Assembly: GCA_048937405.1 (NCBI GenBank)
Contig: JBHLNF010000005.1
Coordinates: forward strand, 192,001 to 256,000
Source: Promethearchaeota archaeon
GTDB taxonomy: Archaea; Asgardarchaeota; Lokiarchaeia; Sigyniarchaeales; SOKP01
Direction of reading: 5' to 3'
DNA: 64,000 nucleotides
The notes beneath the pieces were generated by a model. It was not told where the DNA came from and ran no database searches. It worked only from the letters and a program-made list of their open reading frames with translations. Shown here piece after piece: positions 305-23,738 of this stretch. Numbering within the stretch: position 1 is the first letter of the stretch; every line of letters begins with the position of its first letter. A program made the position numbers and the translations under genes.

Positions 305-1441
305 ATGAATGAATATATAGGATATGGTTCTATATCGAAGCTTAAATATATTTTAAAGAATGAAAATTTCAAAGATATTTTTCTTATAACTGGAAATTCA
401 AAGTTAGAATTAAACAATATCAATAAAGTTAAAACTATTGTAAAGAAATATTCAAATTTCTTTCATTTTAATGATATTGCTCCAACTCCTTCAGTCTTGG
501 GTATTGAAAAAGCATTAAATTCTTTTAAAAAGAAGAAATATGATTCTATTATTGCATTGGGAGGAGGATCAGTCTTAGATATTGGAAAAAGTGTTTCAAT
601 TTTTTCTACTAATGAAGGAAAAATAGAAGATTATCTTCTAAAAAAAGAAAAACTGAGAAGAAAAGGAATCCCTTTAATATTAATTCCAACAACCTCAGGA
701 ACTGGAAGTGAAGCAACTCACTTTGCTGTTATATTTATTGAAAAAACAAAATATTCTCTGGCAGATCCAATATTAATTTCTCCAAAATATACTATTGTAG
801 ATCCTGAACTAACATACAGTCTTCCAAAAAGAATTACTGCATATACTGGTATGGATGCATTATGTCAAGCGATTGAATCTTATTGGAATATTAATTCTAC
901 AAATGAATCCAAGAATTACGCAAAAAAAGCGATAAAACTCATATTGAAAAACTTATTTAATGCCGTTCACAATCCTGATAAAAAATCAAGATATAGTATG
1001 GCAATTGCTGCACATTTTTCTGGTAAAGCAATTAATATTACAAAAACTACTGCTTGTCATGCTATCTCATATCCTATTACCTCATATTTTAATGTACCAC
1101 ATGGACATGCGGTAGCTCTAACTTTACCATCAATGTTTATTTTTAATTCAAATGCAAATGAAAAAGATATCAATGATCTTCGTGGAGTTGATTTTGTTAA
1201 AATGACAATGAATGAACTCATCTCAATTCTAGGAGTTTCTAATTTTACTGACGCAAAAAATAAAATTAAAAATTTAATTAAAAATATAGGTTTAGAAACA
1301 AATCTAGGAGATTTAGGGATAAAAACTCAAGATGATATAGAAATAATTATAAAAAATGGATTTAATCCAGAAAGAGTTAAAAATAATCCCAGAATTTTAA
1401 CTGAAACTCAATTAAGAGAGATTTTAGAGGATATTAAATGA
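305..1441 (+). CDS. Phosphonoacetaldehyde reductase (iron-containing alcohol dehydrogenase, PhpC-like)
   Basis: GGGSVLD, PTTSGTGSEAT, GMDALCQAIES, TTACHAISYP and PHGHA motifs; near Ppd. Confidence 0.8.
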   Translation: MNEYIGYGSISKLKYILKNENFKDIFLITGNSKLELNNINKVKTIVKKYSNFFHFNDIAPTPSVLGIEKALNSFKKKKYDSIIALGGGSVLDIGKSVSIFSTNEGKIEDYLLKKEKLRRKGIPLILIPTTSGTGSEATHFAVIFIEKTKYSLADPILISPKYTIVDPELTYSLPKRITAYTGMDALCQAIESYWNINSTNESKNYAKKAIKLILKNLFNAVHNPDKKSRYSMAIAAHFSGKAINITKTTACHAISYPITSYFNVPHGHAVALTLPSMFIFNSNANEKDINDLRGVDFVKMTMNELISILGVSNFTDAKNKIKNLIKNIGLETNLGDLGIKTQDDIEIIIKNGFNPERVKNNPRILTETQLREILEDIK

Positions 1442-2154
1442 AAGTATTATTGTTAAACTCAGGTATTGGAAAAAGATTAGCTCCATTAACGAATAACTTA
1501 CCAAAATGTCTTATAAAAATATCAGATAATGAAACTATATTAGACCATCAATTAAAGAGTATAATAAAGTGTGGTTTCACAGAATTTATCATTACTACTG
1601 GTCCATTTGAGGATAAAATCAAAAATCATATTGAAAAATTTTATCCTTCTATTTATGTTGACTATGTAATTAACCCATTATATAACAAAACTAACTATAT
1701 TTATTCTCTTTATTTAACGCGGAATAAAATCAATGATGATGTCCTATATTCACATGGTGATTTAATCTTTTCTGAAAATTTAGTAAAATTATTGCTTGAA
1801 TCTAAGTATAAGGATTGTGTATTAGTAAATAAAGATATTCCACCTCCAGAAAAAGATTTTAAATCAAAAATTCTTGATAATAGAATATTTAAAATAGGCG
1901 TTAATTTGAAAGGTGTTAGTACAGCTTTTTTAGCTCCATTATATAAATTAACAAAAAATTTTATGTTAAGATGGATTCAAGAAATTGAATTTTTCATAGA
2001 AAATAAGAGAGTAAATTGCTATGCCGAAGATGCTTTAAATGAAATTTTAAATGAACTTATTTTAAAACCTTGTTATTATAATGAATTTTGTGTTGAAATT
2101 GATGATTATCAAGATTTAGAAGGAGTTAAAAATTATTTAAACAAATATATATAA
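1438..2154 (+). CDS. Phosphocholine/phosphonate cytidylyltransferase family (LicC/PntC-like)
   Basis: LNSGIGKRL..T...PKCL, NYIYSL, GD and EIDD motifs; ATGA overlap with the upstream gene. Confidence 0.75.
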   Translation: MKVLLLNSGIGKRLAPLTNNLPKCLIKISDNETILDHQLKSIIKCGFTEFIITTGPFEDKIKNHIEKFYPSIYVDYVINPLYNKTNYIYSLYLTRNKINDDVLYSHGDLIFSENLVKLLLESKYKDCVLVNKDIPPPEKDFKSKILDNRIFKIGVNLKGVSTAFLAPLYKLTKNFMLRWIQEIEFFIENKRVNCYAEDALNEILNELILKPCYYNEFCVEIDDYQDLEGVKNYLNKYI

Positions 2155-2170
2155 AAATTTAGATAATTCA

Positions 2171-3316
2171 ATGGTAAAAATGATTGTGTGTGAAGAATTT
2201 ATAAAAATTTTAGAGAAATATGATTTTACTTTTTTTACGGGTATCCCAGACTCAACTTTTAAGGATTTGATGAAATATTTAACTGATAATCCTAATGGGA
2301 ACCTTAAAAATATAGTTGCCTGTAATGAATGTGAAGCAATTGCTATAGCGTCAGGTTATCATTTAGCAACAAATAATATAGGAATTGTTTATATGCAAAA
2401 TTCTGGATTTGGAAAAACTGTTAACCCTCTTACATCTTTATGTGATCCTGAAGTATATTCAATACCTATCCTTTTAATGATTGGATGGCGGGGAGAACCA
2501 AACATAATGGATGCCCCACAACATAAAAAAATGGGAATAATTACATTACCTATTTTGGAAACTCTCCAAATACCTTATGAAGTATTGGAACCTAATCTAC
2601 AAAAGATAGATAAAGCATTAAATCACGCATTAGACTATTTTACCAACAAAAAAGGACCCTATGCTTTAATATTTCGGAGGAATTTCTTTCAAAATTATGA
2701 AATGAAGACTTCTTTAACAAATAATTATCATTTAACTACAAGGGAAGTTATTCAGATAATTTTAGATAGTTTTTCTACTGATGAAATTGTAGTTTCTACT
2801 ACTGGTTATATATCGAGAAGAATTTTTGAATATAGAGAAAAAAATATAAAAGATCATCATAAAAGTTTCTATAATATAGGTTCAATGGGATGTGCTAGCT
2901 CTATTGGATTAAGTATAGCTCTACAAAAACAAAAGAATAGGGTTATTGTTTTTGATGGGGATGGTGCTGCTATAATGCAAATGGGGGCATTTTCAACTAT
3001 AGGAAAATATGCACCTTCTAATTTTGTTCATATAATTATAGATAATGAAGCTCATGAATCTACTGGGTGTCAACCAACAAATTCAGCTAGTATAAAATTT
3101 ATAGATATAGCTAGAGCATCCAATTATAAGTGGAATGTTAAGGTTGAGAGAAAAGATGAATTATATGAAGTTTTAGATATTATTCAAAATCGAAATGGAC
3201 CAATTTTAATTGTAATAAAAACAAAGATTCATTCTGAACCAGATTTGAAAAGACCAGATAAACTTCCAAGGGAATATAAAAAAGACTTTATGAGGTATCT
3301 ATCTAAATTAAACTAG
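2171..3316 (+). CDS. aepY: Phosphonopyruvate decarboxylase (ThDP-dependent)
   Basis: FFTGIPDS, YMQNSG..VNPLTSL, IGWRGEP..DAPQH, GSMG and DGDG motifs. Confidence 0.85.
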   Translation: MVKMIVCEEFIKILEKYDFTFFTGIPDSTFKDLMKYLTDNPNGNLKNIVACNECEAIAIASGYHLATNNIGIVYMQNSGFGKTVNPLTSLCDPEVYSIPILLMIGWRGEPNIMDAPQHKKMGIITLPILETLQIPYEVLEPNLQKIDKALNHALDYFTNKKGPYALIFRRNFFQNYEMKTSLTNNYHLTTREVIQIILDSFSTDEIVVSTTGYISRRIFEYREKNIKDHHKSFYNIGSMGCASSIGLSIALQKQKNRVIVFDGDGAAIMQMGAFSTIGKYAPSNFVHIIIDNEAHESTGCQPTNSASIKFIDIARASNYKWNVKVERKDELYEVLDIIQNRNGPILIVIKTKIHSEPDLKRPDKLPREYKKDFMRYLSKLN

Positions 3317-12742: not shown

Positions 12743-13267
12743 CTAAATTCTCGAATCAATAATTCGACGTGTTAATTCAGTAAAAGCTTCATCGACATTA
12801 ATTCCCGTTTTCGCAGAGGTTTCAATATAAATACTACCCTCATTTTCAGCGAATGAACGGGCTTCATCCCTATCTATTACCATACCAACATCTTCTATTA
12901 AATCGGCCTTATTTCCAATAAAAACAAAGGGTATCTTTTCACCCGCAAATTGCCTTATCTCGGTAAGCCACTTTCTTGTTTCTGTATATGTCTGTTCTCG
13001 AGTTAAGTCAAAGACTAATAATGCTCCCGCAGCACCTTTATAGAATGTACTACGAATAAATTCAAAACGTTGTTGCCCCCCAATATCCCAAATACTTAGT
13101 GTGGCAATCTCTCCTTGCCTAAATTCAACATCTTTAGTTAAAATATCTACGCCTACAGTTAATTTATAATTAGCTTGGAATCTATTCTTTATGAAACGCT
13201 GAACAAGACTAGTTTTTCCTACAGCAGCTGCCCCTGTTAATAATACTTTTAACTTAAAACTTGACAT
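12743..13267 (-). CDS. Rab-like small GTPase without a C-terminal prenylation tail
   Basis: GAAAVGKTS, TVGVDI, WDIGGQ, NKAD and ETSAK motifs. Confidence 0.92.
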   Translation of the reverse strand: MSSFKLKVLLTGAAAVGKTSLVQRFIKNRFQANYKLTVGVDILTKDVEFRQGEIATLSIWDIGGQQRFEFIRSTFYKGAAGALLVFDLTREQTYTETRKWLTEIRQFAGEKIPFVFIGNKADLIEDVGMVIDRDEARSFAENEGSIYIETSAKTGINVDEAFTELTRRIIDSRI

Positions 13268-15632: not shown

Positions 15633-18600
15633 TTGCAAAATCCAGAGGAATTAGCTCAGGAAGCTTTAAAATATTTAGATATCGCACAAAAACTTGAAGA
15701 AGAAAAAGAATTTGAAAATGCAATTTCGCAATATCAACAAGCTGCTGATTTTCTTAAGCAAAGTGGATTTTTAATGCATAGAGTTCAGGAAATTTACGAT
15801 AGAGTAAGTGAATTGAAAGATTTTCTACAGAAAGAAAAGCTTTATCAACAAATAGAACATAAAACTCAAAGTGTACAATTGCAAGAACGAGGATTCGCTT
15901 TATTAGACAGAGCTAAAAAATTAGAATTTGATGGTCTCTTTGAAGATGCTATTCAACAGTATTCATCTGCAATTCAATTACTAAGTCAAGCTGGTTGGTC
16001 TGAAACCCAACTATTTGAATTAAAAACAAAAATTAACCGTCTTTCTCAAGAATTTGATAAAAGAAAAACAACCCTAGAACCACAAAAACAAATACCTGAA
16101 TCACAGAGTCCCCCCATACAATTAATTCAGGATGAAAAACCTCAAATTGTTGGAATGTTTGGCCAGAAAAGTAGTATAGAAAAGGAAGAAGTTATAAAAC
16201 GTTTTAGAGAAAAAAGAAAATATGAAGAAAATATTCAAAATCAAGCGTTTGAACATATTGATGCGGCAAAATTATTTGAAAAAGATAAGAAATTTGATGA
16301 TGCGATATTGAATTATGAGAAAGCCATTGGTTTATTAACTTCCATTGGTTGGACCATTCAAATCCAAAATATCCAATCCATAATTGAAAAACTCAAAAAA
16401 GATAAAATAAATTTCGAATCTTTTCAAGTTAAACCTTCTACAACTTTAGAAACTACTGACATTGAAGAGGAGAAAGTTATATTAGAGAAAAGAGCAAAAT
16501 TAGCCAAAGAGAAATTAAACAAATTTGAACTGAAGAAAAAACATGAGGAACAAGTACAAAATGAAGCCTTCAATTTGATAGATATTGGCAATAGATTTGA
16601 AAGAGAAAATAAGTTTGATGAAGCAATTGAAAAATTTGAACAGGCAATTCAATATTTTAAATCTATAGAATGGGATTCTTATGTACATCCCATTAAAGGC
16701 TTTATTAATCAAATAAAAGAGAAGCAGGAGAGAGAGAAAAAAGCGGAAAAATTAATTGAAAAGAGACAAAAAGATTTAACCATTCTTCAAGATTCGATAT
16801 ATTTAAAGCAAAGAGAGCAAATTTTCAAATCAGCAAAAGAATTAGACAAGAAAAGAAGAGAATTTGAAGAAAAAACAAAAGTTGATGCAAAGAAAGAAAA
16901 AGATCTCTTTGGAATATTAGATAAGGCGGATAAAATTTTAAAAGAGAAAAATTTTGATGATGCTATAAATGAATATCAAAAAGCTTTTTCTATTTTAAGC
17001 GATTTGGGTTCTGGATGGGAAACTTATACATCCATGATAAAAAATACTATTTCTAATGTTGAGAAATTAAAAAATTCTTACCTTACTAAAAAACTTGATG
17101 AGCAAAAGAAATTAGAAGAAAAAGAACGTGAAGAAATTGAATTTCAAAAGCAAATTTTAACTCAATTAGATAAGGAGCGAAGCCAATTAAAAGAGAAAGA
17201 AATTATTATCAAAGATCATGAAGAGGAAATTAAGCATTTTGAACAACGTAAAAAAGTTGGATTTGAGTACTTAGATTCTGCCATGGATTTCCTGATACAA
17301 GGTAAATATGAAGAAGCTATATTAGCATATCAAAATGCTGCCAATATTTTTGCCGAAATACAATGGACGGAGGAGATTCCTTTAATTGAAGTATCAATAC
17401 AAGAAGTTGAAGAATTGCAGAGAACTCAAAATATCATCGAGCAGAGGAAACTAAAAGATGCTATTGAACGTCAAAAGAAAGAGGAAGAGTTTCAAAAACA
17501 AGTTAATAAATATTTAAGGCAAGAAAGGGAAAAATTAAAGAAAAAAGAAGTTGAATTAATGGAACGGGAAAAGATGGTAAAATATCAAGAAGAAAGGAGC
17601 ATTGCAGGATTCAAATTACTAGATCAAGCTCAAGACAATTTAGAACAGGGAAATTTTGATGATGCCATTGAGATTCTAAAATATGCCATAAATTTTTTCG
17701 CTGATATTAATTGGCAGAATGAAATTAATCTAATACAGAATTCCATTATAGAAATTGAAAATAAAAAACGAGAAGCTGTAATTCAAGATCAAATTAAAAT
17801 ACAAGCAGAAATTGAACGAGAAAAGCAAGAAAGACTATTTCGGGATTATGTTACAGGGGAAATGAAAGCACAACAAGAGAAATTTGAAAAAAGAGAAATT
17901 ATTTTAAGAGAAAGAGAAAAAGAAATTGCTTTTCGGGAAAATAGAAAACAAGAAGCTTTTAACTTACTAGAGACAGCACAAGATCTTCTTTTAAATGGGA
18001 AGTTTGATGATGCTCTTGAAATTTATTATAATATAGCGAATATCTTTGCACAAATTCAATGGAATGAAGAAATTTCAATAATTCAAGAAGCAATTCAGAA
18101 TATAGAAGAAAGAAAGAGAGAGAATGAAATAAATAAACAAAAATTAATGCAAAAGTCAATAGAAAAAGAAACTGCTGATAAAGCTTTTATTGAGCAACTT
18201 AGGTATCAAAGAGGGAAGAAACGAGCTGAAATTTTGAAAGAGAAAGAACAAATTGAAAAACAAAAACAGCTTTCTGCTCAAAATTTGGTAAAACAACAAA
18301 AAGCATTTAAATTGATAGAAGATGGAGAAAATCTTATCGAAAAAGGAATTTTTGATGATGCAATAAGTAATTATAATGAAGTTATAGAAATTCTGAAAGA
18401 AATTGGTTGGGAAGAAGGATATCTCTCCCTATTACGTGACAATATACGATCTTTTAAAGCAAAGAAAAGGGATTATGAAAAAGAAAAACAAAATGAATTT
18501 GAAATTAAATTAAAGCAACAAAAAGAAGAAGAATTATTTCAAAAAAGAATAACTGAATATATGAAAAAAGAGCAGGAAAAAATTCAAGCTAAAAAAATTG

Positions 18601-21600
18601 AGATTCATCAAAAAGAAGATTTGTTAAAAAAAATGGAAAGCCGAAAATTAGAAGCATTTAAGGCAATGGAAGTTGCAGATAAGTTATTAAATGAAAGTGA
18701 TTATGATGGAGCTATCGAGAATTATATTCAAGCAGAGTTGATATTAAATGAAATTAATTTTCCAACTAATGTTATTAGAGATATAATTCAAACCATTCAA
18801 GAGAAAAAAAGAGAAGAAAACCTAAACAAGATGAAAGAATTAGAACAAAAATATAGAAAACAACGTGAAGATGAACTCTTTCAAAAACAAATCTTGGAAA
18901 GAATAAAATTAGAAGAACAAGAAATGAGGGAAAAGCAAGAAAATCTATTGAAACAAGAGCAATTGAGGATCATAGAAGAACAAAAAAAACAAGAGGCATT
19001 CAATATATTAGATGACGCTAAAATAGGAATTAAAGAAATGAAGTTTGATGAAGCAATTGATTTATATAATAATGCCAAAAAGATATTTCTAGAAATTCAA
19101 TGGGAAGATCAAGTTAATTTAATTGATAAAGCTATTCTTACGATTGAGAATAAAAAAAGAGATACAGAAGTACAAAAACAAAAGAATCTAGAAAATAAAA
19201 TTCAGCAAGAGCAACTAGAAGTTACTTTCCAAAGAAATCTTGTTAAGGAAATGGAAATTGAACGTAAAGAATTAAAGAAAAGACAAATAAGTCTTAGAGA
19301 AAGAGAAAAAGAACTCATTTATAGAGAAAAAAAGAAAGAAGATTCATTTAAACTATTAGATCAAGCACAGGATTATCTTTCACAAGGCAAATTTGATGAA
19401 GCAATAGAACTTTATGAAAATGTGGCAAATATATTTGCTCAAATTCAATGGACTGATGAAATTCCAATCATAAATAAAGCTATACAGGATATTGAAAATA
19501 AAAAGAGAGAAAGAGATTTAATAAAACAAGAAAATTTTCAAGAGATAATAAAAAAGGAAAAATCTGAACAAGAGTTTATGGAAAAAATAAGGGATCTGAA
19601 GGAAAAGGAAAAATTAAAAGCTCTTGAAGAAAAAGATTCAATACAAAAGCGAGAATTGAGTATTTCTCAAAATTTAATCAAGCAAGAAGAAGCATTTAAT
19701 TTGATAAATCAAGGATATGATTTACTTAATCAAAAGAATTATGATAAAGCATTAGAAAATTATCAAAATGCAATAACTATCCTTACTAAAATAGGATGGA
19801 CCCATGATTATTTAAAACTTCTTAAAGATGCTGTAAAAGCCATTGAAATAAGAAAGATTGATGTTGAAAAAGAGAAAGTGCTTGAAAAAGAATTATTTAT
19901 GAAACATCAACAAGAAGAAGAACAGTTCCAAAAGAAAATAACAGATAGTATGAAAATTGAACAGAAAAGATTACAAGCAAAAAAAATTGAAATTCAGAAA
20001 AAAGAACAATTAAAACACGTAATGGAGAGTCGTAAAGAGGAAACCTTTAAAACTATGGAATTGGCTGAAAATTATTTTAATCAAAAACAATATGATAAAG
20101 CAATTGAACAATACCGCCAAGCAGAGTTAATTTTGAATGAAGTTGGCTTTCCAACTAAAGTAATTAGAGAAATGATAAATAAAATTCAAAATAAAGAGAG
20201 AGAAGAATGGCTAAATAGTCAGAAAGATCTAGAAAATAAACATCAGAAGGAGAAAGAAAATTATGAATTTCAATATAAAATCACAGAAAGCATTAGATTA
20301 GATGAAATTAAGTTAAAAGAAAGAGAAAATAAAATTCAGAGACAAAGAGAACTCCAAAAATACATGGAAAAAAGAAGGGAAGACGCCTTTAATCTTCTCG
20401 AAGAAGCAGAAGGATTCATGAAACAATCTCAATATGATAAATCACTTGAATATTATCATGCCGCTGAATTAATATTAAATGAAATTGCTTTTCCAACAGA
20501 TTCGATAAGGGATTTGATTTTAAAAGTTCAAAAGAAGAAACGAGAGTACCAACTGCAAAAACAGAAGGAATTAGAGCAAACTATTAAAAGGGAAAGAGAG
20601 GAATGGAATTATCAACAAAAGATAGTTAAGGAATTACAAAATGAAAAAGAACGATTGAAAGTAAAAGAAATAGAGGTATTAAAAAGAGAAGAATTGAAAT
20701 CAAAATTAGAGAAAAGAAGAGAGCAAGCATTTAAGATATTAGAGCAAGGAGAGGGCTTCTTAAAAGAACAAAATTATGATAATGCGATAGTCTGTTATAG
20801 AAGGGCAATGCAATTTTTAAAAGAACTCCAGTTTCCAACAGATTCTATAAATAATATGATAATTAAAGTTAATAAATTGAAAAAGCAAAAAGAAAAAGCA
20901 GAACGTTTAAAATTTGAAAAAGAACTTGATAGAATCGAAGAAGAAAAAGCCTTAGAAGTTTTAGTAGAAGAAAGAAAGAGACAAGAAAGGGAAAAAATGG
21001 AAGCGCAACAAATAGCACTAAAAGAACGAGAGAAAATTATCCAAGAAAAAATGAGTGTAAGAGAATCGGCATATTCTCTTTTGGAAGAAGCTGGGACTTA
21101 TTTAAAACGTCGAATTCCAAACTACAATGAGGCTATTTCATTATATATTCAAGCACGGCATATTTTAGCGGATAATATAGGATGGGAACCTGAAATTAAT
21201 AATTTGAATATATTAATTAAAGATTTACAGCAAGAACAAGCTAATTTCCTCAATAAAAAGCAATTAGAGGAACAAGCTCGTTTACAACGTCAAAATGAAT
21301 ATGCCTTATTTCAAGAAGAAGTTAGAAAAAGAAGGTTAGAAAAAGAAAAATTAAAACGGGAACAAGAAAAACAATATCGCGAGTTACTATATAAAAGAAA
21401 ACATATTGAACAAATTAAAAGTGAAGGATTAAGACTCATTGATGAAGGGAAAAAAAATGCAAGGTATCATGAATTCGAAAAAGCCTATGATAATTTTGAA
21501 GATGCAACTAAAAAGTTTAGAGAGATTGATTGGAAAGAAGAGATAAAATATATTGAGACTGAAATTAAAAATACAAAAATATTAGAAGAAAAAGTAAGAA

Positions 21601-21995
21601 AAGAAGAAAAGAGAATTCAACTAATACAGGAACAGTTAGAAAAACAAAGAATTTTGGAAGAAGAGCGTAAAAAGGCTGAGGAATTAAAACTGAGAGAAAC
21701 CGTTATTGAAGTTGGTGAATTAACTGAGGAAGTATCAGACATAATCGAAGAAATTAAGCAACAACAAAAACTAGATGCTGAAATTCAAAAAAAGAAGATT
21801 AAATCTAAAGCCAAAGACTTTCGTAAGGAAATGAGTAATTTAATAAAATTTAAACAAGAACTTTCTGAAGAAATAGCAAAGAAAGAAGCAGAAAAAAGAA
21901 AATTTGAAGAAAAATTACAGATGTCAAAAGAAAGAGAAGAAATTGATAACCTTAAAAGAATGATTAAAGAAACTTCTAAAAAGAAAAAAAGGTAG
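15633..21995 (+). CDS. Giant helical repeat protein (about 18 MIT/TPR-like modules joined by E/K/Q/R-rich helices)
   Basis: 2120-aa ORF with a recurring AFxLxxxA...FDxAIxxYxxA...IxW motif about every 116 aa. Confidence 0.8.
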   Translation: MQNPEELAQEALKYLDIAQKLEEEKEFENAISQYQQAADFLKQSGFLMHRVQEIYDRVSELKDFLQKEKLYQQIEHKTQSVQLQERGFALLDRAKKLEFDGLFEDAIQQYSSAIQLLSQAGWSETQLFELKTKINRLSQEFDKRKTTLEPQKQIPESQSPPIQLIQDEKPQIVGMFGQKSSIEKEEVIKRFREKRKYEENIQNQAFEHIDAAKLFEKDKKFDDAILNYEKAIGLLTSIGWTIQIQNIQSIIEKLKKDKINFESFQVKPSTTLETTDIEEEKVILEKRAKLAKEKLNKFELKKKHEEQVQNEAFNLIDIGNRFERENKFDEAIEKFEQAIQYFKSIEWDSYVHPIKGFINQIKEKQEREKKAEKLIEKRQKDLTILQDSIYLKQREQIFKSAKELDKKRREFEEKTKVDAKKEKDLFGILDKADKILKEKNFDDAINEYQKAFSILSDLGSGWETYTSMIKNTISNVEKLKNSYLTKKLDEQKKLEEKEREEIEFQKQILTQLDKERSQLKEKEIIIKDHEEEIKHFEQRKKVGFEYLDSAMDFLIQGKYEEAILAYQNAANIFAEIQWTEEIPLIEVSIQEVEELQRTQNIIEQRKLKDAIERQKKEEEFQKQVNKYLRQEREKLKKKEVELMEREKMVKYQEERSIAGFKLLDQAQDNLEQGNFDDAIEILKYAINFFADINWQNEINLIQNSIIEIENKKREAVIQDQIKIQAEIEREKQERLFRDYVTGEMKAQQEKFEKREIILREREKEIAFRENRKQEAFNLLETAQDLLLNGKFDDALEIYYNIANIFAQIQWNEEISIIQEAIQNIEERKRENEINKQKLMQKSIEKETADKAFIEQLRYQRGKKRAEILKEKEQIEKQKQLSAQNLVKQQKAFKLIEDGENLIEKGIFDDAISNYNEVIEILKEIGWEEGYLSLLRDNIRSFKAKKRDYEKEKQNEFEIKLKQQKEEELFQKRITEYMKKEQEKIQAKKIEIHQKEDLLKKMESRKLEAFKAMEVADKLLNESDYDGAIENYIQAELILNEINFPTNVIRDIIQTIQEKKREENLNKMKELEQKYRKQREDELFQKQILERIKLEEQEMREKQENLLKQEQLRIIEEQKKQEAFNILDDAKIGIKEMKFDEAIDLYNNAKKIFLEIQWEDQVNLIDKAILTIENKKRDTEVQKQKNLENKIQQEQLEVTFQRNLVKEMEIERKELKKRQISLREREKELIYREKKKEDSFKLLDQAQDYLSQGKFDEAIELYENVANIFAQIQWTDEIPIINKAIQDIENKKRERDLIKQENFQEIIKKEKSEQEFMEKIRDLKEKEKLKALEEKDSIQKRELSISQNLIKQEEAFNLINQGYDLLNQKNYDKALENYQNAITILTKIGWTHDYLKLLKDAVKAIEIRKIDVEKEKVLEKELFMKHQQEEEQFQKKITDSMKIEQKRLQAKKIEIQKKEQLKHVMESRKEETFKTMELAENYFNQKQYDKAIEQYRQAELILNEVGFPTKVIREMINKIQNKEREEWLNSQKDLENKHQKEKENYEFQYKITESIRLDEIKLKERENKIQRQRELQKYMEKRREDAFNLLEEAEGFMKQSQYDKSLEYYHAAELILNEIAFPTDSIRDLILKVQKKKREYQLQKQKELEQTIKREREEWNYQQKIVKELQNEKERLKVKEIEVLKREELKSKLEKRREQAFKILEQGEGFLKEQNYDNAIVCYRRAMQFLKELQFPTDSINNMIIKVNKLKKQKEKAERLKFEKELDRIEEEKALEVLVEERKRQEREKMEAQQIALKEREKIIQEKMSVRESAYSLLEEAGTYLKRRIPNYNEAISLYIQARHILADNIGWEPEINNLNILIKDLQQEQANFLNKKQLEEQARLQRQNEYALFQEEVRKRRLEKEKLKREQEKQYRELLYKRKHIEQIKSEGLRLIDEGKKNARYHEFEKAYDNFEDATKKFREIDWKEEIKYIETEIKNTKILEEKVRKEEKRIQLIQEQLEKQRILEEERKKAEELKLRETVIEVGELTEEVSDIIEEIKQQQKLDAEIQKKKIKSKAKDFRKEMSNLIKFKQELSEEIAKKEAEKRKFEEKLQMSKEREEIDNLKRMIKETSKKKKR
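17604..20390 (+). repeat. Intragenic tandem duplication of a four-module (~463 aa, 1389 bp) super-repeat
   Basis: Matching motif pairs 463 aa apart: GKFD..ANIFAQIQW twice, QNL.KQ..AF..IGW...YL twice, MESRK..QAELILNE..FPT twice. Confidence 0.7.
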
Positions 21996-22154
21996 AAATT
22001 AATATTTATCTTTAAATTCTTTAAATTTAAAAAGAAATTCTAACTATTTGTCTTAATTATTATTTTTTGAATTATTTGGAAACATATCATTAAAAGAGTT
22101 TAAATTAAGATCTTGAAATAATAATTATAACAACAAAAAGAAGTGTTTTATAAA

Positions 22155-23738
22155 ATGATTGAAAAACCAGAGGATATTGTTAAGTCACGTATGTATGCTA
22201 GACAACAGCTAATTGATGGATGGGATCAAACTATAATTGATAATGGTGTTATTATGATAATTGGTGTTGGAGCTTTGGGTTGTGAAATTGCTAAAGATTT
22301 TGCTTTGATGGGAATTGGTAAATTGATCCTTGTTGATCTTGATACTATTGAAACCTCTAATTTATCACGTCAAATGCTCTTTAGACCAGGAGATGAAGGA
22401 CGAGCAAAAGCAGAAGTGGCAGCAGAAAGATTGAAGGAGATGAATCCTTATCTAAAGGTTGATTTCTACTTTGAAAAACTCCAAAAATTACCAATAGCGG
22501 TTTATGAAGAATCTGATGTAATAGTGGCAGCTTTAGATAATTTTAATGCTAGATTAGATCTAAATAAGATATGTTTAAGATTAAAAAAGCCAATGGTCGA
22601 AGCGGGGACAGTAGGATTTGAAGGACATTGCCAAATAGTAATTCCTGAGGGATCTGGATTGCAATACAAGAATAAGGAAAGCGAAATCGAGAATTTGGTT
22701 CAAACAAGGCTTTGGGAGATAACCGAAATGGAATATCCCGAATATTTCGAAGCACAGAAAAGAATTGAAGAACTTGAAGAAGAAATTGAAAATATTAGAG
22801 CTGAAAAAATTATTCCTTTAGAAGAAAAATTTAGAAAGGAAATTGAGATGGTTTTTGATTGGAAGTATGCTCCGGAATTATTAGACCAAACTCCTTGTTA
22901 TAGATGTTTAGTACCAATACCCCCTGCTGATGATAAACTTGTGGCAGCATGTACTTTAAAAGGTCTACCACGCAATAGAAATCATTGTGTAATTAAAGCT
23001 GAAGTAGAGTTTGAAAAGAAATATGGTCATAAACCTGACCTAAATTTAAATGATGAAGTAATAAAATTAAAAGAATTAGCACAAATTGAATTAGAAAAAT
23101 TAAGAGAACGGGTTCTTGATGAAAACCTTCCACCAGAAACAAGAGATTCTTTATCTGAAGAGGAAATTAAGGAATGGAAAAAAAATATTGAAGAAACATT
23201 TGGACCAAATTATAAGTTTGAAGAAATGGAGAATATACTTGGGAATAAAATTGCTGCAATACAAACTGTTAGCTCAGTTATAGCTAGTATTCAATCTCAA
23301 GAAGCATTAAAACTTCTTTTTAGAGTAAATGGGAGAAATATTGGTACTCCAATGGATCCTCCTTACATTAATTACAATGGAATTTATGGCCAATTCGATC
23401 ATCTAAATATAATAAAAAGAGAGGATTGTCTTGCTTGTGGAAAAATTGAAGGGGAAGAAAATGTACAAATTGTAGTTCCTTTTGATGCGGATGTCGGGTA
23501 TGTTTTTAAAGCCTTGAAAATAACAGGATATGAATTAAATCCAGAATTATGGATGATTACTAACCCAATGACAAAAGAAATATACTGGAATCCATATATG
23601 CCTTCATTAAAAAATCCAAAGATTAAATTAACTTCCTTAAAGGTTAAAAGCAACGACATAATTTCGATGACTCCTTTAGGTAAAGCATTAGTAGAATCAG
23701 AAATTAAAAAGTATAATGTCATAGTTGCATTTATGTAA
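22155..23738 (+). CDS. Ubiquitin/Ubl-activating enzyme E1 (ThiF domain, Uba3/Uba2-like) with a probable C-terminal ubiquitin-fold domain (GTG at 22143 is an alternative start)
   Basis: GVGALGCE, DLDTIETSNLSRQ, LDNFNAR, CYRC..CLAC zinc pairs, catalytic-Cys motif ACTLKGLPRNRNHC. Confidence 0.88.
   Translation: MIEKPEDIVKSRMYARQQLIDGWDQTIIDNGVIMIIGVGALGCEIAKDFALMGIGKLILVDLDTIETSNLSRQMLFRPGDEGRAKAEVAAERLKEMNPYLKVDFYFEKLQKLPIAVYEESDVIVAALDNFNARLDLNKICLRLKKPMVEAGTVGFEGHCQIVIPEGSGLQYKNKESEIENLVQTRLWEITEMEYPEYFEAQKRIEELEEEIENIRAEKIIPLEEKFRKEIEMVFDWKYAPELLDQTPCYRCLVPIPPADDKLVAACTLKGLPRNRNHCVIKAEVEFEKKYGHKPDLNLNDEVIKLKELAQIELEKLRERVLDENLPPETRDSLSEEEIKEWKKNIEETFGPNYKFEEMENILGNKIAAIQTVSSVIASIQSQEALKLLFRVNGRNIGTPMDPPYINYNGIYGQFDHLNIIKREDCLACGKIEGEENVQIVVPFDADVGYVFKALKITGYELNPELWMITNPMTKEIYWNPYMPSLKNPKIKLTSLKVKSNDIISMTPLGKALVESEIKKYNVIVAFM

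Follow-up and report, generated by a model that had tools for sequence, protein, structure and literature searches.

What kind of protein is encoded by a 2120-residue open reading frame (ORF) of a Lokiarchaeia genome that repeats one helical module 18 times and ends just upstream of a gene for an E1-like enzyme? The gene lies in a 64,000-nt stretch of DNA, here called the window, from a Promethearchaeota archaeon (assembly GCA_048937405.1, contig JBHLNF010000005.1, positions 192,001–256,000 of the forward strand), and the coordinates of its parts and neighbors, numbered from the first letter of the window, are collected in Table 1. From repeat analysis, ortholog alignment, structure prediction and coevolution, we conclude that this giant is probably (at about 60%) a cytoplasmic, non-enzymatic structural protein, a segmented alpha-helical rod that would act as a length-defined scaffold, spacer or tether. 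It belongs to a real, previously undescribed rod or scaffold family, of which our literature searches, including papers on ESCRT, returned no description.

Eighteen units held to a strict length

The same start residue is used in 60 full-length orthologs of 2108–2127 amino acids (aa). The protein is rich in Glu (17%), Lys (15%) and Gln (9%), contains 0.8% Pro and a single Cys, and its Pfam scan returned no enzymatic or other domain besides MIT and TPR. A motif scan located 17 F/Y-[DE]-x-A-[ILV] anchors, and an 18th, diverged copy was found at aa 1948; successive anchors are 76, 118, 107, 113, 118, 116, 116, 116, 117, 114, 116, 116, 117, 114, 114, 116 and 117 aa apart, so that from unit 5 on (aa 423 onward) the period stays at 114–118 aa, with ~116 aa typical. 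Because a profile built from 15 of the units finds 18 of 18 in the genome, at E-values that range per unit from 1e-35 to 6e-6, the periodicity is far beyond chance. The initial annotation had counted 18 copies at mostly 114–119-aa spacing, a count that both the motif scan and the unit profile reproduce. Within the protein, units share 20–50% identity pairwise, most pairs falling at 20–35%, and the pairs 7/11, 8/12, 9/13 and 10/14 reach 37, 48, 50 and 46%, respectively; units 7–10 and 11–14 form a 463-aa super-repeat that is echoed by DNA repeats at a 1389-nt offset.

The length of the array is strictly conserved. An alignment of 61 orthologs at about 48–88% identity contains only 11 insertion columns and only four query residues in columns with more than 10% gaps; gaps and insertions are confined to the termini, the two N-terminal hinges (aa 149–150 and 268–282) and aa 437, and no insertion or deletion (indel) was found among these orthologs in aa 438–2120. 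Per-unit column conservation among them is 0.65–0.79, and since the units are only 20–50% identical to one another yet each is conserved between orthologs, the array is old and has not been homogenized. In other members of the family, HMMER counts of 14, 15, 17, 18, 20 and 25 units correspond to proteins of 1654, 1759, 2013, 2122, 2331–2345 and 2927 aa. The number differs by genus (14, 17, 18, 20 or 25), in whole units, with units 1–6 and 15–18 orthologous in essentially all size classes and only the middle block expanding. A rod or ruler, as proposed in the initial annotation, fits this strict conservation of length.

Predicted fold: long helices joined by three-helix modules

We ran AlphaFold2 (AF2) on two fragments, aa 599–1005 and aa 1–432, with 61 sequences each, the ortholog alignment being gap-free across the former. 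The aa 599–1005 model (mean predicted local distance difference test score, pLDDT, 84.6) consists of helices at fragment positions 2–74, 77–93, 97–189, 193–209, 213–305, 309–326 and 330–406, in which 93-residue helices (97–189 and 213–305) alternate with 17–18-residue ones. Each 93-residue helix is predicted to start as helix 3 (H3) of one module, cross the entire spacer and end as helix 1 (H1) of the next, such that per unit the chain would be interrupted only by the 17–18-residue helix 2 (H2) and two turns of 2–3 residues. In the aa 1–432 model (pLDDT 83.1), the head shows helices at 4–23, 27–44, 48–99, 103–119 and 124–152 with pLDDT 82–94, and the first long rod helix starts at module 4. 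The only two stretches predicted to be disordered in these fragments are aa 148–174 and 266–276. Hinge 1, whose pLDDT drops below 50 over aa 148–174, is assigned as coil by DSSP at 153–181 and carries Pro at aa 150, 155, 160, 161 and 170.

Coevolution gives the same picture of the module. Mean-field direct coupling analysis (DCA) drew on 1953 units from 265 family members, arranged as 1605 two-unit windows with an effective number of sequences of about 1030. The strongest couplings that replicated in both window halves, at separations of at least 10 residues, all fall inside profile positions 2–56: H1–H2 pairs run antiparallel (3–33, 3–36, 9–25, 10–26), as do H2–H3 pairs (33–41, 30–46, 26–48), and H1–H3 pairs run parallel (4–41, 11–41, 14–52, 20–56). 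From this pattern, the module is modeled as an up-down-up three-helix bundle. Within the spacer, mean coupling is highest between residues 3 and 4 apart and rises slightly again at 7, and no hairpin or spacer–module coupling exceeded the 99.9th percentile, a test to which a parallel in-register dimer is invisible; with no long-range spacer pair above that level, nothing points to the spacer folding into a hairpin or docking on a module. A spacer hairpin making a compact five-helix unit was rejected, there being no turn-forming position, indels or anti-diagonal couplings, and the AF2 helices being continuous.

Sequence and structure searches agree that the module most resembles an MIT domain. 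Summed over eight stretches, the match of the whole protein to Pfam MIT reaches 97.7 bits, the cut-off being 30. Scanned singly, 8 of the 18 modules match MIT at E ≤ 0.01 (best 2.2e-6), making it the family matched by most modules, with TPR_1 and TPR_2 matching 4–5; module 2 aligns to positions 3–61 of the 66 of Pfam MIT at 24.9 bits, below the 30-bit cut-off. Aligned by hhalign to the MIT domain of the genome's own Vps4, the modules match with 74% probability and an E-value of 2.9e-5 over 31 columns. When the 18-module profile was compared with PDB sequences, consensus-TPR designs ranked first, via the 22-residue helix-turn-helix core only, and the MIT domains of Vps4A, NRBF2, calpain-7 and a Sulfolobus Vps4-like protein aligned over up to 48 residues (positions 10–57) at E 0.003–0.02. 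Foldseek of the model against the PDB returned nothing at E ≤ 0.001, and a second-look structure aligner alone set MIT domains apart from the rest as the best structural matches. Alignments to TPR solenoids gave root-mean-square deviations (rmsd) of 76–105 Å, and the Spectrin repeat (PF00435) had no match at E ≤ 1 in the 2120-aa protein. We therefore classify the module as MIT-like, in the sense of a TPR-type hairpin with an added third helix, rather than as a proven member of the MIT family. That the modules resemble MIT and do not build a TPR solenoid had been proposed in the initial annotation, and Pfam, AF2 and DCA each support it.

Shape and feature searches of the ESM Atlas returned only clusters labeled hypothetical or TPR-like, from bacteria. 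The best of these, a cluster of 320-aa hypothetical proteins most commonly from Fusobacteriota, superposes over 217 residues on the model of aa 745–961 (TM 0.45/0.56, rmsd 3.4 Å) along a stretch of two long helices, each followed by a three-helix module, and on this ground the design of such modules joined by long helices may occur outside archaea.

In the 13 regular units, D/E/K/R make up 53% and Q 11% of the 62-aa spacers, which lack Pro and contain about 0.2% Gly. Pairs of opposite charge are enriched at i+3/i+4 (z 2.3–5) and pairs of like charge depleted (z about −5), a pattern typical of salt-bridge-stabilized helices. Pooled over 670 orthologous units, the long helices hold 18 Pro in 48,240 positions, and their length is constant across units. 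At the same time, 25% of spacer residues are bulky hydrophobics. The pooled profile conserves hydrophobic positions 60, 66, 70, 79, 83, 87, 94 and 101, carries charges at the d-type positions 90, 97 and 104, and contains the motifs K-K-R-E at 54–57, F-Q-x-x-I at 79–83 of every unit (for example aa 620–624, 736–740 and 969–973) and R114-K115 ahead of the next module. Judged by its sequence, the spacer does not fit cleanly as an ER/K single helix of the classical kind, nor as a canonical coiled coil. The composition of the charged, proline-free segments that the initial annotation placed after the modules is borne out, and their reading as helical rods agrees with the AF2 prediction of continuous, spectrin-like helices from H3 to the next H1; they are not featureless, in view of their hydrophobic residues and motif. 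The F-Q-x-x-I motif runs into a stripe of one hydrophobic residue per heptad (87, 94, 101, 108) that lines up with the core Phe of the following module. A role for it as an internal MIM1-like helix docking on the modules of another chain was set aside, its spacing being 0/4/8 and not the 0/4/7 of MIM1, and is also disfavored by the lack of a replicated spacer–module DCA coupling above the 99.9th percentile.

The scaffold rod that we favor would be built as follows. Each 116-aa unit would contribute one ~93-residue continuous helix and one short 17-residue helix, and each knot would be a packing of three segments, with the last part of one long helix serving as H1, the short helix as H2 and the first part of the following long helix as H3. 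The chain would then advance in one direction, as in spectrin, with about two thirds of each long helix outside any bundle. Two N-terminal hinges would part a head (modules 1–2, then module 3) from a 15-module rod, and a charged, basic-ended tail would close the chain. At 1.5 Å per residue and with a 17-residue back-step per knot, a unit would span about 11 nm, modules 4–18 ~160 nm, and the whole chain about 190–200 nm if straight, with the 14- and 25-unit orthologs proportionally shorter or longer. The knots would offer MIT/TPR-type grooves at fixed pitch and azimuth for short helical or peptide motifs, and the groove partner would probably be polymeric or multivalent. The conserved end units may serve as anchors and the expandable middle may set the length; it is the exact helix length, the copy changes in whole units, the conserved ends beside a variable middle and the flexible N-terminal heads that suggest a length- and phase-defined scaffold or tether. 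A more ambitious form of this proposal, in which the giant acts as a genuine molecular ruler or as a long-range tether about 150–270 nm long, depending on genus, with knots docking at ~11-nm pitch on a polymer of the cytoskeleton or of membrane remodeling (ESCRT-III, Lokiactin or Asgard tubulin), is in our estimate quite unlikely.

Comparison with known systems delimits this architecture. MIT domains (PF04212; Vps4/SKD1, NRBF2, katanin p60, MITD1 and the tandem MIT of calpain-7) share the asymmetric up-down-up bundle of about 70 aa, with the TPR-like motif A-x-x-x-G-x-[FY]-[DE]-x-A-I-x-x-Y-x-x-A in its first two helices. They occur in one or two copies per protein, whereas the giant has 18; its H3 and next H1 are predicted to be one continuous helix rather than domain ends, it has no ATPase, protease or other effector domain, and its single modules stay below the Pfam cut-off. 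In the rods of spectrin, alpha-actinin and dystrophin (PF00435), the last helix of one bundle likewise continues into the next, as is predicted here. Spectrin repeats measure about 106–116 aa, with rod length set by repeat number, and consist of three helices of about 30 residues each in bundles that abut. Unlike them, the giant has an H2 of 17 residues, about 55–60 residues of each long helix lie outside the predicted bundle, and PF00435 does not match. ER/K single alpha-helices (myosin VI/X, caldesmon) are also long, Pro-free and rich in E/K/R/Q, and opposite charges are over-represented in them at i+3/i+4. They are almost devoid of hydrophobic residues, in contrast to spacers with 25% bulky hydrophobics, a heptad-like seam and a conserved F-Q-x-x-I. 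TPR solenoids share the helix A-turn-helix B consensus; their defining feature is contiguous stacked repeats, while the hairpins of the giant are 116 aa apart and unstacked. Finally, nebulin, titin and the helical-bundle rod Ebh of Staphylococcus show a similar combination of super-repeat (here of four units, 463 aa), middle expansion, conserved ends and strict length, although their folds and sequences are unrelated.

Table 1. Features of the giant gene and its surroundings (window coordinates unless a locus is named)
Feature	Location	Strand	Basis
Whole gene, 2120-aa protein, predicted segmented helical rod	15633..21995	+	ORF list and translation; TTG start, stop 21993–21995, no internal stop
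N-terminal head, aa 1–147: modules 1 and 2 with a short connecting helix of 52 residues	15633..16073	+	AF2 of aa 1–432
Hinge 1, Pro-rich predicted disordered linker, aa 148–181	16074..16175	+	AF2/DSSP, Pro positions, ortholog indels
Module 3, aa 182–265	16176..16427	+	AF2 helices 182–217, 221–238, 241–265
Hinge 2, short predicted disordered linker, aa 266–276	16428..16460	+	pLDDT <50, DSSP coil; ortholog indels at aa 268–282
Predicted rod, modules 4–18 joined by continuous long helices, aa 277–2045	16461..21767	+	AF2 fragment, indel count, unit profile
Super-repeat copy 1, units 7–10, aa 657–1119	17601..18989	+	Unit identities, DNA repeats
Super-repeat copy 2, units 11–14, aa 1120–1582	18990..20378	+	Offset of 463 aa from copy 1
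C-terminal charged tail ending KKKKR, aa 2046–2120	21768..21992	+	Translation; column conservation 0.65–0.78 among orthologs
Intergenic gap between giant and E1, 147 bp	21996..22142	.	Sequence read directly
E1-like ThiF-family enzyme (context)	22143..23738	+	Pfam ThiF, E 5e-57; 64–86% identical in syntenic loci
Ras-family small GTPase, 174 aa (context)	12743..13267	-	Pfam Ras, E 1e-48; 83–98% identical in syntenic loci
S8 peptidase gene, 25-unit lineage	L011 18809–20290	-	Inserted between giant and E1
S8 peptidase gene, 20-unit lineage	L013 17065–18606	-	Inserted between giant and E1
S8 peptidase gene, 17-unit lineage	L014 16188–17648	-	Inserted between giant and E1

Distribution and genomic neighborhood

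At E ≤ 1e-15, matches to the unit profile came from 64 of the 68 genomes sampled within the giant's own GTDB family of Lokiarchaeia, and the 233 other Asgard genomes sampled across the phylum gave none. Each of the 21 other genomes sampled from its genus matches, with intact genes showing an open frame of about 2125–2140 aa and a few cut at contig ends; frames in other genera of the family measure about 1645–1670, 2071, 2351 or 2927 aa. All named records are uncultured Promethearchaeota/Lokiarchaeia metagenome-assembled genomes, in which the protein is annotated as ‘hypothetical’ or ‘TPR repeat protein’. A wider, weaker superfamily comprises 282 representatives at E ≤ 1e-10. It includes a 1700-aa paralog in the same genome (contig C7 at about 622.2–627.3 kb; L015:10175–15277, minus strand) that matches the unit profile six times (E 5e-16 to 1e-6) and shows an MIT match that is full-length and weak; this paralog is not beside E1, E2 or ESCRT genes. 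A search of the cultured Promethearchaeum syntrophicum MK-D1 (CP042905.2) for an ortholog returned only weak family members; the distant superfamily member DSAG12_01611 (2547 aa, 13 unit matches; L018 10001–17644) sits in an unrelated neighborhood.

The gene order aspartate kinase, Ras-like GTPase, RACo, giant, E1 and HAD hydrolase is largely kept across seven syntenic loci, with E2 following in most; L011 lacks RACo, and in L014 the gene for the small GTPase is broken into fragments. Identity to the window proteins is 36–63% for the giant, 64–86% for E1, 83–98% for the GTPase and 60–80% for aspartate kinase. The 174-aa GTPase, two genes upstream of the giant, is conserved far more than its neighbors, and the other loci encode a second GTPase, of about 600–680 aa and with a Ras/Roc-type domain, a few kb farther upstream. 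The listed E1 ORF begins with a GTG at 22143, and an ATG at 22155 would give 527 aa; as the orthologs have 527–528 aa, the latter is probably the start. The gap between giant and E1 contains an oligo-T run at about 22058–22070 and AT-rich, TATA-like sequence resembling a promoter. Elsewhere in the genome, contig C20:30618–33806 (L001) encodes a divergent Vps4 (403 aa, 511–1722, minus strand) and an ESCRT-III protein (215 aa, 1923–2570, plus strand), with a gene for a small Ras-like GTPase after them. The ESCRT-III protein beside Vps4 ends in a Leu/Ile-rich MIM1-like helix, and a second ESCRT-III gene is on contig C7; the giant itself is on C18.

Weighing the alternatives

Several observations weigh against the scaffold rod. 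Hydrophobic power in the spacers is 0.38 at period 3.5 versus 0.09 at 3.6, and the mid-spacer F79-Q80-x-x-I83 is as conserved as the core residues of the module; together with the hydrophobic content, these features suggest that the spacers may not be free single helices, and they may instead pair with another chain or partner into a bundle, filament or lattice. The predicted template-modeling scores of the AF2 fragments (0.29–0.33) leave the relative orientation of segments undefined, and so the straightness of the rod and its total length are estimates. The best single-module MIT match (module 13, 26.7 bits, positions 2–37) stays below the 30-bit cut-off, and Pfam scans of the 1700-aa paralog and four distant members, including DSAG12_01611, returned no informative extra domain. 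The spacer features in particular would suit a self-assembling cytoskeletal element, which we consider unlikely: the seam and F-Q-x-x-I would pair chains into coiled-coil dimers or staggered bundles with the knots as nodes, giving intermediate-filament-like filaments or a lattice. In its favor, the power at 3.5 is more than four times that at 3.6, positions 79, 83, 87, 94, 101 and 108 would form a single stripe aligned with the core Phe of the next H1 on a helical wheel, and charge sign is conserved at many spacer positions. Yet positions 87–108 provide only one hydrophobic residue per heptad beside charged d-type positions, and the i+3/i+4 charge pattern is that of salt-bridge-stabilized single helices. 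Antiparallel or staggered pairing is unsupported by off-diagonal spacer contacts in DCA, to which a parallel in-register dimer would be invisible, and AF2 as run does not address oligomers. Another reading is an ordinary TPR repeat protein, a compact solenoid misread as a rod, as database names of homologs, the Pfam TPR_1, TPR_2, TPR_11 and TPR_12 matches and the top-ranking consensus-TPR designs would have it. We give this reading next to no credence, since the TPR likeness amounts to the 22-residue core once per 116 aa: the 34-residue helix-turn-helix consensus is present, contiguous 34-aa repeats are absent (one hairpin per 114–118 aa), AF2 and DCA indicate isolated three-helix bundles between long helices, and the rmsd to TPR solenoids is very large.

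Two further proposals concern partners of the giant rather than its shape. MIT domains bind MIM motifs of ESCRT-III in the groove between helices 2 and 3 or helices 1 and 3. By analogy, the 18 knots may bind the C-terminal MIM helices of ESCRT-III, with the rod lying along, bundling or measuring polymers or holding their tails away from Vps4. Because Asgard Vps4 MIT domains bind Asgard ESCRT-III by isothermal titration calorimetry (PMC7240154), such binding is a reasonable analogy. MIT is also the best-matching family by sequence and structure, and the genome encodes Vps4 and two ESCRT-III proteins, one with the MIM1-like helix. As an account of the giant we nevertheless find it rather improbable. 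The similarity of module to MIT is weak, the giant is on a different contig from all three ESCRT genes, and it is limited to one Lokiarchaeia family, while Vps4 and ESCRT-III are reported across Asgard archaea in a broad survey that mentions no such protein (PMC11188069). Modules that differ from one another while each is conserved among orthologs argue against 18 identical ligands. MIT-like bundles, moreover, take ligands other than ESCRT: NRBF2 binds PI3K complex subunits. The katanin p60 N-terminal domain appears with p80, CAMSAP and an ASPM peptide in PDB entry titles. The other proposal places the giant in the adjacent ubiquitin-like conjugation system, as a scaffold, an adaptor or a major substrate for E1 and E2, and here the initial annotation had raised a possible linkage to E1. 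The linkage is indeed conserved within the family: the order giant-E1-HAD is kept in all seven loci down to 36% identity of the giant, E1 starts 147 bp downstream on the same strand with E2 3.1 kb downstream, the gap is 122–195 bp in 14- and 18-unit orthologs, and the 15% Lys would suit a substrate. Relatedness, however, explains this synteny, as the shared block, which includes unrelated metabolic genes, also holds aspartate kinase, RACo and the HAD hydrolase and all the genomes are of one family. A convergent S8 (subtilisin-type) peptidase gene, absent from the window, parts giant from E1 in the 17-, 20- and 25-unit lineages, widening the gap to 1.5–1.7 kb; the promoter-like sequence and oligo-T run lie within the window's own gap, and the giant evolves much faster than E1 and E2. 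MK-D1 has a 53%-identical E1 with no member of the giant family within 40 kb, and a ubiquitin-like gene sought in the locus was not found, the matches being on contigs C16, C7 and C19. Despite conserved adjacency, functional coupling of giant and E1 is thus unsupported, and a role in conjugation is very improbable.

Loki-type Asgard archaea, which count among the nearest known relatives of eukaryotes, have an actin cytoskeleton and long protrusions, with few structural proteins known. The occurrence of this protein in nearly all sampled genomes of one Lokiarchaeia family, its length constraint over 1,680 residues and its quantized unit number are rare in prokaryotes and typical of eukaryotic cytoskeletal rods and rulers. 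Should the giant be a generic helical repeat protein, its value would be limited to annotation. As a segmented scaffold rod, it would show an MIT/TPR-like hairpin reused as a junction in a spectrin-like rod, and at about 200 nm it would span a large fraction of the cell. If the ruler proposal were true, the middle block would fix some cellular dimension that differs by genus (protrusion width or filament spacing, for example), which would make the giant a prokaryotic functional analog of spectrin, nebulin or golgin-type proteins with a different fold. The family offers a concrete, expressible target for how Asgard cells organize space, for which DSAG12_01611 of MK-D1 could serve as an experimentally accessible relative.

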